From NCBI RefSeq assembly GCF_013167455.1, contig NZ_CP038328.1: a DNA stretch of 64,000 nucleotides; one strand, written 5' to 3'. The DNA comes from Escherichia coli O157:H7 (GTDB taxonomy: Bacteria > Pseudomonadota > Gammaproteobacteria > Enterobacterales > Enterobacteriaceae). This document shows, piece after piece, positions 1-3,000 of this stretch (its first letter is position 1; every line of letters begins with the position of its first letter). The position numbers are program-made.

Positions 1-3000
1 TGACCCGTCGTAAGGAGCTTGGTCTGCGTGAAGCACAGCTTGCCCGGCAACAGAAAAATAACGAGCGCGATTTTGAGTTTGCGCAGTCTCAGTTTGAACA
101 TAATAAAAACGTTGATCAGCGGAACTTTGATTACAGAGCCAAAGTTGACGACCGTAATTATGCACTGAAGGAAAGGGAGTTTAACGCTAACCAGAATTAC
201 CGGAATGCGTCACTGGGTATGGAGCAGCAGCGACTCCAGTTGCAGAAATACAACCAGCGACGGCTTGAGTATAACGATATGATTGCCCATAGCCAGCCAC
301 TAATGGAAGCGCTTGGAAAAGCAATTGAGGCTGGCGATCAGGAGGCTGCAACGCGTCTGTTCGGGCAGCTGCCAAAGGGACATCCATTAATTCTTATGTC
401 AAACGAAGGCTATGCAGCGAAAGCGGGTCAGGCCGTGATCAACCTGCAAAAAATCTTTGGTGATAAGCCGGACATGGCGATCGATTCGCTGAATACCCCG
501 GAAAATCTCGATGTGCTTTCCGGCGTGTTTGCCCCGGAACTACAACAGCGTATTGGCATGCCTGATTCAACCGGGGACAAAACGATAAAAGAGGCCAGGA
601 TTGGCAGTATCGTACCAGCGCAGCAGGAAGGGTACGTACTTATTGGCCTTGATCTCACATACAGCGATGGCTCCACCGCGCATAAACCTGTAACAGAATA
701 CGGCAGTGCGCACCCTGATGATCAAACCGTGCTGGCGATACCCGTTGATAAGGCTATCGCTCAGGTCAGGGATCGCAGCAAATTTGCAGAGATATCGAAA
801 AATTATGGTTATTTTATGCCGAAGCAGCAGGGACTTTCTCTGAAAGAGCTTCAGAAGGGGGCCAGCAACGTAGCGGCGGACGCGATCAAGAATGGCGGTA
901 ATGCTCAGGCTGCGGTGGATGAATATTATGCTGCGACTGGTTCACAACCGCATCAACAGAAAATTCAGCAACAAAAACTTCAGCAACAGGTTATCAACTG
1001 GGCGGGAGATGATCCTGATAAGCTGTCATTTGCCAGAAATGTAGCGGCCCGTCAGCCTGAAATGCTGGAACCTCAGAATCAGAAATTGCTGGAGAACGGG
1101 TATGCGAATTTTCTCCGTATTCAAAAGGCCAGGGGGGAACAGGCCAGAGATGAAAGTGCTTCATCTGCATCTCAGTTTATCCGTGGACTGAAACAGAATT
1201 ACGCCCAGTAATTCACGATATTCCATTAATACCATTTCCTGATGCCCGGCCATTGTGCCGGGTTTTTTTATGGAGTCTGTATGGCCTATTCAGAGGAACA
1301 GCGTCCTGAGGCGCAACTCGGTAACCAGAATCGTAACAGCCTGAACATTCAGCAACCCGGCGAAACTGACAGCTATGAAGCATTTTTCTCTGATCCGAAT
1401 CGCTGGAAGGATAACAGTACGTCGTTCAGCCTGGGCGATGTATTGCCAACAATGGGTAAAGGTTTCGCCCAGTCCGTCCGGGGAACAGGGGAAATGGCCC
1501 GTGGACTCGGTGATGCGATGATTCAGAGCCCGGTAAAAACAGGGGCGCGTATTTTAAATGAGTTCAGCCGTATGGGGCTGCCGGGTGTCGCAACTGTGCA
1601 GGATATTTTTGCCGGTGGCAGCAGGGGGGCTGATGAGGTCATCGATACCCTGCCTGATGGCAAAAACGCGGTTACTGATACTGTCGGTAAAGGTCTGAAG
1701 GCAACCGGTAAGGCTGTCAGTGATGGTGCCAAAGCCACTGATGAATGGCTGACCGGTAAGATGTCGCCGGGTGCAGTTCGTGCGCTGAATACGCCGATGA
1801 CCGAAGGCTATAATGATTCTGCGGTCTGGGTGGCGAAGGGTGTAAACCTGATTGGTGCGCTTGTACCTGATATGGTTGCTGGCGGTGTGGCTAGAAAGGT
1901 GGGTGATGTCACACTGCGAAAAATGCTGACCGCCGGGCTGGAGAAAAAATACATCGCGGCAGGGATGCAGCCGGAAAGAGCCACGGCACTGGCAGCAGAA
2001 GCTGTCGATAAAAAAATGCCGGATTTATTCCAGGCGGGCCTGATCACCCATTCCACTGTAAGTGCACAGGGGCAGAGTGCAATGGCGGCAGCAGATGCTG
2101 TTCTTAATGCTGATTACTCTGAGCTGGCGCAGTCACCGAAATTTCAGCAGACGTTTTTGTCCATTGACGCCGACCCGCAGCACGCACAGCTTACTGATCG
2201 CCAGAAAATGGATCTGGCAAAAGAGCGTGTTGCCGATGAGGTGCGCGCGCAGCTGGCAACCGATCCTGAATTGCTGGCTGTGAATGCCATGGCGGCAAAA
2301 CTGGGTGACGCACAACTGTTTAATCTGGTGACACGAGGCACAGCGAAGACCGTTAAAAGCGGCATTGTCAGAAATGCCACGGAACAGGGGGCGATTAATG
2401 CGGCGCAGGGCGGCTATTCACGCTATCAGGAAAACACGGCATTGCGTGAGACCGCCGGAATGGGTGTGTCACCGTGGGAGGGCGTGGCTGACGCAACGAT
2501 CGAAGGTGCAGCCTTTGGTGCTGCGATGGGGGCTCCATTCGGTGCGGTTGCCGGATATCGTGGCAGACGTCAGGCCGCAGAAGAAACCGCCATGCGTGAT
2601 GCTGAAACCGTGCAGCAGGACGACGCAGCCCCGCAACCAGAATCTGTTGATCCGGTGGCGCAGCAGCGTGAATCCATGCAGGGCATGAATCGCGAGCAGC
2701 TTCTGGAGCAGTATGCTGATGCGGATATGGCAACAGAGGGTGACGCATCCGCAGCTCATCGCCGGGAAGCTGCCAGCCAGTTGTTGAATGAACTGGACGA
2801 ACAGACGAAGCGACAGGCTGTGATGAATGAGCTGAAGGCGAAGCCGCGTTCTGAACTGCTTGAGGAATACCGCAGACTCAGCCAGAAAGAGGGGCGCACC
2901 GAGACTGAAGAACAACAGTTTCAGGCAATACGAGAAGTCATTCGCCCACAACAGGAAGTGACGCCGGAAGCACAGTCACAGCCTGAAAATGCGGAGGATG

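Follow-up and report, generated by a model that had tools for sequence, protein, structure and literature searches.

The late operons of the lambdoid phages lambda, 933W and Sp5, which are controlled by Q, contain terminators composed of a GC-rich stem followed by a U-tract, placed in sense orientation between genes downstream of pR'/Q. RNA polymerase loaded with a lambdoid Q protein ignores intrinsic terminators. Our own scan of the lambda late operon located comparable hairpins at the D/E, E/FI, I/J and J/lom junctions and after lom. The hairpin between ORF79 and ORF80 of the Stx prophage considered here is likewise GC-rich, followed by a U-tract, sense-oriented and intergenic; the difference is that tR' alone has experimental support, whereas the ORF79/ORF80 site, 28 kb further downstream, is not described in the literature searched.

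Internal partial terminators are also known in the E. coli operons rplL-rpoB and rpsU-dnaG. Those of rplL-rpoB and rpsU-dnaG-rpoD and the terminator that follows gene VIII of f1/M13 are likewise located between cistrons, immediately ahead of the distal ribosome-binding site. Operons of the rplL-rpoB type are, however, transcribed by unmodified polymerase and set a fixed ratio, whereas Q-modified polymerase is expected at ORF79/ORF80, where the ratio is about 1.6:1. Mobile elements such as Tn916 (PMC11658703) follow a similar logic, in which a terminator blocks outside or premature transcription and the element's own antitermination reads through it when activated; the element, the host and the antitermination machinery are different there, and the insulator demonstrated for Tn916 is only proposed here for the ORF79/ORF80 hairpin. 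The terminators at moron boundaries (the Juhala/Hendrix model; lom, bor, stx) are a further point of comparison, and hairpins of a similar kind close the nearby lom, hok and ECs1237 units (VT2-Sakai positions 27493 and 28352). ORF79 and ORF80, in contrast, are essential virion genes rather than morons expressed in the lysogen, and no promoter lies beside their hairpin.

The ORF79/ORF80 junction and its hairpin

The window, the whole stretch of 64,000 nt of E. coli O157:H7 DNA that was analysed, begins within the late operon of an Stx prophage that belongs to the short-tailed Sepvirinae (type 933W/Sp5/phi24B). Positions 1-3000 are 100% identical to the circular 63-kb O157:H7 record NZ_CP133131, and positions 900-1700 match 120 Stx-converting phage records at 99-100% identity, including VT2-Sakai, vB_EcoP_24B (phi24B) and an EDL933 Stx phage record. 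The junction region (1100-1400) is present in 410 of 5,426 complete E. coli genomes. ORF79 (ECs1241, phi24B gp48; annotated as WP_000012450 and ECs_1241) encodes 421 amino acids and is cut by the start of the window, so that its 3' part occupies positions 1-1211 of the plus strand and ends in TAA at 1209-1211. ORF80 (ECs1242, phi24B gp47) encodes 2793 amino acids at 1281-9662 on the same strand, according to the PGAP and ECs_1242 starts. Pfam searches assigned LPD5, LPD1, MuF_C and LPD38 domains to ORF80, a large polyvalent protein, and returned no domain match for ORF79. The late operon ends in a GC-rich palindromic hairpin at 9670-9693, 7 nt past the ORF80 stop, which carries a T-rich tail on the minus strand only.

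In a literature search on ECs1241/ECs1242, Mondal et al. 2016 alone was relevant; ORF79 and ORF80 (2,793 aa) were both found essential for tail formation in Sp5. According to the proteomics of a 2026 preprint on phi24B, purified virions contain both gp48 and gp47, at about 30 and 19 copies respectively (a ratio of about 1.6:1, based on label-free quantification with a stated accuracy of a factor of 1-3), and the preprint proposes for the giant gp47 a place inside the capsid and a role in ejection.

The intergenic gap between the two genes is 69 nt long and contains, 33 nt past the ORF79 stop and on the sense strand, the stem-loop GCCCGGC/CATTGT/GCCGGGU at 1244-1263. Its seven pairs consist of G1244:U1263 and the six G-C pairs between CCCGGC (1245-1250) and GCCGGG (1257-1262), which enclose a 6-nt loop, CATTGT, at 1251-1256. 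The predicted energy is -13.1 kcal/mol for all 7 bp and -11.1 kcal/mol for the six G-C pairs alone. A T7 tract at 1263-1269 directly abuts the stem, and the minus strand has no T tail at the hairpin. Direct reading of the stem, loop and T7 thus bears out the first-pass annotation, which had described a hairpin with a T run between the two ORFs. The same annotation placed ATG1242 inside the stem; the codon does adjoin the hairpin, but it stands at its 5' foot, where only G1244 can pair.

The 31-nt segment folds with a z-score of -3.2, equalled by none of 200 shuffles. A loose terminator pattern showed no overall enrichment, with 14 matches in the first 12 kb against 12.8 expected, and the hairpin at 1244-1263 ranked first among them. 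A stricter scanner, which accepted compact hairpins of at most 26 nt and -11 kcal/mol or lower that are followed by 8 positions containing 6 or more T, found 12 sites on both strands of the 64-kb window, against 1.08 +/- 1.2 in a random control of 25 first-order Markov sequences. At the control frequency of about one such site per 128 kb, the chance of finding one on the sense strand of the 69-nt gap is about 6e-4. The site combines a GC-rich stem and loop, an adjoining U-tract, a position after a stop codon that clears the terminating ribosome, and pairing that is kept through substitutions, which are the marks of an intrinsic terminator, and the in silico evidence supports the prediction of a canonical Rho-independent terminator.

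Conservation of the hairpin

The junction was compared across diverged phage records, 48 IMG/VR loci retrieved with the ORF80 N-terminus as query and 3 loci walked from the most distant locus. The 49 copies reduce to 13 distinct sequences that fall into four lineages: the window type (lineage A), a type with about 90% DNA identity (B), the Oslovirus type with about 76% (C) and a group with 63-76% protein identity (D). With one exception, pairing is preserved by all substitutions in the stem: G1249:C1258 is replaced by A:U in lineage C, G1244:U1263 is replaced by A:U in lineage B and by G:C in lineages C and D, and C1250 is replaced by U opposite G1257 in lineage B. The exception is lineage D, in which the closing pair is gone and the loop is enlarged to 8 nt; no other lineage has a broken stem. 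Among about four independent lineages, 97.1% of the stem cells are paired, and controls with the 3' arm shifted by 1-3 columns gave 26-46%. Changes on both sides occurred in two of the seven pairs, and RNAalifold recovered the same stem unaided. With this number of lineages the apparent covariation of the stem is supportive rather than overwhelming.

The elements around the stem have diverged to very different degrees. A U-tract is found in every lineage and its length drifts, from T7 to 7-9 T in the Oslovirus lineage and to T5-6 with A/T-rich sequence in the 63-76% relatives. Behind it GGAGT and ATG1281 are invariant in all lineages, and the 32 nt between the ORF79 stop and the stem have diverged between them. 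Outside the four lineages, the corresponding gap of Vibrio phage K248 (28% identity) contains a hairpin that is unrelated, and Vibrio phage 1F273_PE002 has just 13 nt between the two genes and no hairpin; a deep conservation of the hairpin was therefore rejected. This absence from at least one distant relative would be expected if the hairpin were a neutral leftover without function, for example the scar of a mosaic junction, but the pairing survives four kinds of substitution in lineages with as little as 63% protein identity, in which the intergenic bases on either side have changed, and hairpins of this kind are strongly intergenic and sense-biased across the operon, so that a neutral origin is very improbable.

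The conservation of the stem with compensatory changes would also suit a role after transcription, in which the hairpin acts as a barrier to 3' exonucleases that stabilises the processed ORF76-79 part of the mRNA and the U-tract serves as an unstructured standby site for ribosomes, or as an S1 site, that raises the translation of ORF80. Between the U-tract and the Shine-Dalgarno sequence there are 2 nt, the bases from 1264 to the ATG are unpaired in the centroid fold, and the hairpin will form in read-through mRNA in any case. A stability hairpin, however, needs no adjoining 3' U-tract, and one is kept in all lineages; as the principal function this role is considered unlikely. The U-tract could nevertheless owe its conservation to enhancing translation, as an A/U-rich element, and not to termination, and exonuclease-barrier and standby functions are compatible with a terminator and can coexist with it.

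The start codon of ORF80

The phylogenetic comparison is equally revealing of where ORF80 begins. ATG1281 (1281-1283) is in frame with the upstream ATG at 1242-1244, and database records are divided between the two: AP000363 orf71 and HM208303 vb_24B_48 (phi24B) start at 1242, and NC_002695.2 ECs_1242, PGAP, PhiR5_2, PhiR12_3 and KU238070 start at 1281, the last with a ribosome-binding site annotated at window positions 1270-1276. The first-pass annotation favoured ATG1281 as the more plausible start, and codon loss, frame breaks, the Shine-Dalgarno sequence, homology and complementation all agree with it. The motif GGAG that it reported before this codon is present 5 nt upstream, at 1272-1275 on the plus strand, one base from the 1273-1276 given there, and is supported by sequence, conservation and anti-Shine-Dalgarno pairing. 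When the 20 nt upstream of each candidate are paired with the anti-Shine-Dalgarno sequence, the energy is +1.9 kcal/mol for 1242, which has no Shine-Dalgarno sequence, and -5.9 kcal/mol for 1281.

The 13 codons from 1242 to 1280, MPGHCAGFFYGVC, are the hairpin and the T-run read as protein. In place of ATG1242, lineage B has ATA and lineage C has ACG, and beyond the TAA at 1227-1229 neither lineage offers another start in frame. Within lineage C the frame is broken by T-run indels of 1 and 2 nt, and the segment 1242-1280 therefore cannot be coding there. From codon 1281 onward lineage B shows 2, 0 and 21 substitutions at codon positions 1, 2 and 3 in 80 codons, and protein homology starts at residue 1 of the Met1281 product in 48 of 48 IMG/VR loci. 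An out-of-frame ATG at 1270, which is ACT or ATT in other lineages, was ignored.

Published experiments point in the same direction. A delta-ORF80 phage was rescued by a clone that starts at window position 1247 and lacks ATG1242, and the in-frame deletion in the same study retains the ATG-GCC-TAT of 1281 (Mondal et al. 2016). The phi24B peptide table includes residues 19-41 of the product that begins at Met1281, and the portion of the table that was examined contains no peptide from the 13-codon extension, which is weak evidence. The peptide (M)AYSEEQRPEAQLGNQNR was not found in that part of the phi24B peptides, which were matched to a stop-to-stop ORF database in which a true N-terminus would be semi-tryptic, so that its absence carries no weight.

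A genuine alternative start at ATG1242 would yield an isoform of 2806 aa with a 13-residue hydrophobic leader. The codon shares the frame of ORF80, which is open from there in the window as well as in the 63-76% relatives (loci L055 and L056), including across a 3-nt indel, and AP000363 and HM208303 use this start, the latter with a SignalP leader cited. Against it stand the lost codon, the frame-breaking T-run, the absent Shine-Dalgarno sequence, the onset of homology, the clone from 1247 and a peptide record that holds residues 19-41 of Met1281 and, in its examined part, none of the extension, and a functional start at ATG1242 is accordingly extremely improbable. The in-frame ATG that lineages A and D keep, in D even across the 3-nt indel, is regarded as retained ancestral sequence, and the "leader peptide" noted in HM208303 from SignalP is an artefact of translating the hairpin. 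ORF80 thus starts at ATG1281 behind GGAG at 1272-1275 and not at ATG1242. Taken alone, the terminator anatomy and this start codon can be held with high confidence.

Late-operon context and the role of the hairpin

The position of the hairpin within the operon is best seen in VT2-Sakai, which is identical in sequence at the site. There Q occupies 2697-3170, the tR' hairpin 3421-3443 and the ORF79/ORF80 hairpin 31069-31088, about 28 kb downstream of Q/pR'/tR' on the same strand and with no opposite-strand gene between. From tR' to the end of ORF80, VT2-Sakai contains 16 compact sense-strand terminator-like hairpins, 12 of which are intergenic, even though intergenic DNA makes up 8.6% of this stretch (binomial P = 2e-10 for the intergenic bias). 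The intergenic sites include one before stx2A and those after stx2B, the portal gene, the capsid gene, lom and ECs1237, in addition to the ORF79/ORF80 gap. Because the hairpin is one of 12 in the intergenic DNA of the late region, and lambda is alike in this respect, it is one of a class and no special device of this gene pair. The 3' end at tR' (StxS) has been mapped by Term-seq, and the same paper restates the dependence of late transcription on Q antitermination (Sy et al. 2020, PMC7547250).

This context suggests that the hairpin may act as an insulator that Q overrides. RNA polymerase not modified by Q would terminate at the hairpin, whether it came from transcription in the lysogen, from leak-through out of the lom, hok and ECs1237 morons or from spurious starts, and the 8.4-kb gene for the putative ejection protein would thereby be silent outside lytic growth. 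Q-modified polymerase from pR', some 28 kb upstream, would pass the hairpin, and one late transcript would then yield both virion proteins at comparable levels. The hairpin would still form within such read-through mRNA, leaving the U-tract and the Shine-Dalgarno sequence single-stranded just ahead of ATG1281. The two-state behaviour, a stop in the lysogen and read-through in lytic growth, would follow from the indifference of Q-loaded polymerase to intrinsic terminators. ORF80 is essential and present at about 19 copies per virion, and its expression past the hairpin must therefore be substantial during lytic growth. The insulator role as such stands at about an even chance, and the whole account, in which a canonical terminator ahead of a start at ATG1281 stops unmodified polymerase and is overridden by Q, is judged moderately probable.

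No sigma-70-like promoter was found between the preceding terminator and the hairpin (VT2-Sakai 28372-31068), and the distance from the hairpin to ATG1281 leaves no room for one. A moron-type unit was rejected for the pair, which has no promoter-like site of its own in this interval and in which both genes are essential. It counts against an insulating role that no promoter was found whose transcripts would need stopping.

The complementation plasmid of Mondal et al. 2016 provides a further view of the terminator. Its primer joins position 1247 to a BamHI site, and the junction rebuilds the CCCGGC arm (GGATCC+CGGC). A hairpin of 6 bp with U7 is consequently located between Ptac and ORF80 in this plasmid, and complementation was positive. 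Complementation despite the hairpin implies either that the terminator is leaky for unmodified polymerase or that little gp47 suffices for rescue.

An attenuator that sets the ratio of the two proteins, as the first-pass annotation had suggested, is unsupported and is made unlikely by the operon context and the virion stoichiometry: there is no competing pairing, the operon is Q-antiterminated, 11 similar hairpins occur in it, and gp48 exceeds gp47 in virions by no more than about 1.6:1. No antiterminator or alternative pairing was seen in the MFE, centroid or RNAalifold structures, which show the terminator stem alone, no upstream copy of either stem arm was found, and an Rfam scan of window positions 1-12000 at E <= 1 gave no match at the site. 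The exclusive pairing and the upstream leader peptide or ligand domain that characterise attenuators of the leader or riboswitch type are thus absent from it. A long-range pairing in the MFE structure, between CCAU at 1232-1235 and AUGG at 1270-1273, was rejected, its bases not being conserved.

As a partial terminator in lytic growth, the hairpin of this first-pass idea would let fewer transcripts reach ORF80 than ORF79 and would set the gp48:gp47 ratio in this way. The terminator is immediately adjacent to the ORF80 ribosome-binding site, gp48 is slightly the more abundant of the two in virions (about 30 copies, against about 19 of gp47), and the layout is that of rplL-rpoB and rpsU-dnaG in E. 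coli. Late transcription is, however, Q-antiterminated and Q-loaded polymerase ignores intrinsic terminators, the 11 similar hairpins occur at other late-gene junctions whatever the copy number, and no alternative pairing is available to make the effect tunable. With the virion ratio as it is, and its two- to three-fold uncertainty, a strong effect of the terminator during lytic growth is hard to accommodate, though a mild one may occur, and partial termination is an unlikely basis of the stoichiometry. It is less likely still that the hairpin continues to terminate or process Q-modified transcripts, whether this would tune the ratio of about 1.6:1 between gp48 and gp47 as two capsid-internal ejection proteins or release a lytic, 3'-end-derived Hfq-binding RNA.

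An sRNA could also be considered as the product of termination itself, derived from the 3' UTR at the end of the ORF79 transcript and bound by Hfq. A hairpin with a U-tract is the standard 3' module for Hfq, and Stx prophages encode many Hfq-bound sRNAs, one of them produced at tR'. Yet Table S2 of Tree et al. 2014, a weak test because it reports uninduced cultures, lists no plus-strand orphan Hfq peak at about 1,294,08x of NC_002695.1, the site has no Rfam match, and the 32 nt from stop codon to stem diverge between lineages. Such an sRNA is considered highly improbable. The strong ECs1242 Hfq-CRAC signal in the same study (Tree et al. 2014) is antisense and lies about 7.3 kb downstream of the site.

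Thus, the hairpin is an ordinary conserved terminator signal, and current understanding is unchanged by it. The split among annotations is settled: AP000363 orf71 and phi24B vb_24B_48 start 13 codons early, and ECs_1242, PGAP and KU238070 are correct. Anyone cloning ORF80 with its native upstream sequence will include a predicted intrinsic terminator 11 nt before the start codon, and the published complementation construct carries one. More broadly, the late operon of Stx phages, like that of lambda, appears to be punctuated by about 12 intergenic terminators, and the expression of all virion genes and of stx2 would therefore hinge on antitermination by Q.

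Terminator-like hairpins and the spacer upstream of the giant gene

The distribution of terminator-like hairpins along the late region of Sp5, the VT2-Sakai prophage, is strongly biased toward the gaps between genes. Between positions 3400 and 39600 of its sequence (L007, AP000363), 12 of the 16 compact sense-strand terminator-like hairpins are intergenic (P = 2e-10), including the sites that flank stx2AB and those located 3' of the portal, capsid and lom genes. In lambda (L064 1-23000), five intergenic hairpins are comparable to this set.

Distant relatives, at approximately 28% identity, are found in the Vibrio phages K248 (L065) and 1F273_PE002 (L066), and here the gene order is kept: two small genes, a gene of 470-510 amino acids and then the giant gene. 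The gap before the giant gene of K248 (L065 2020-2050) contains an unrelated hairpin, its tail rich in T, and then a promoter-like site, and in 1F273_PE002 (L066 2250-2264) this gap is only 13 nt long. In the window, the intergenic spacer between ORF79 (ECs1241) and the giant ORF80 (ECs1242) contains a TTAAT motif (1226-1230) that is unchanged in all four lineages of junction copies, including relatives with 63% protein identity, and around which the neighbouring bases diverge. Within the motif, an in-frame TAA bounds the reading frame of ORF80 on its upstream side; the motif has no evident function.

Annotated starts of the giant protein and of holin S

In the phi24B record (HM208303) the giant gene is annotated from the rejected upstream ATG (49148, equivalent to window 1242), with a note of a SignalP leader peptide. 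The proteomics database supplied with a 2026 phi24B preprint instead uses a stop-to-stop ORF of 2,811 aa (49136-57568), and that paper gives 2,811 aa as the size of the giant protein. Both the HM208303 and the 2026 proteomics sizes are 13-18 residues too long. The opening 35 nt of holin gene S, as annotated in AP000363, contain a strong terminator-like hairpin (L007 8233-8258, -17.4 kcal/mol) with TTTTTATT after it, and the start of this gene, too, may have been annotated too far upstream.

The 3' end of ORF80 and a possible antisense RNA

The ORF80 stop is followed after 7 nt by a GC-rich palindrome, TGCCCCGTACTGAAGTGCGGGGCA (window 9670-9693). Because its tail is T-rich on the minus strand only, it looks like a terminator for converging transcription and not for the late operon. 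The final codons of ORF80 (...KKVGVE*, window 9600-9662) are unlike those of Sakai Sp5, and the reverse primer of Mondal et al., placed across the stop in Sp5, has no match to the window; thus the window is not Sp5 itself but a closely related sequence of the NZ_CP133131 type.

EcOnc36 is an Hfq-CRAC peak present in 5/5 datasets (NC_002695.1 1,301,433-1,301,515; Tree et al. 2014), and the same study ranks ECs1242 17th among Hfq-bound coding sequences, nearly all from antisense reads. When the NC_002695.1 coordinates are converted via two anchors, its counterpart apparently falls at window ~8596-8678 (-), antisense within ORF80. A tool scan placed a promoter-like site (8719..8692) and a terminator-like hairpin (8469..8450) on the minus strand on either side of this peak, which suggests an antisense RNA of ~240 nt within ORF80.

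Virion proteins of the ECs1238-1242 block

In the phi24B proteome, gp51, gp50 and gp48 (ECs1238, 1239 and 1241), the equivalents of whose genes sit just upstream of window position 1, are each present at ~20-40 copies in virions. Because gp51, gp50 and gp48 are found in virions yet are missing from the cryo-EM model, as is the giant gp47, the entire ECs1238-1242 block may encode capsid-internal or ejection proteins, even though ORF79 and ORF80 are the only genes of this block among the nine essential ones (Mondal et al.).
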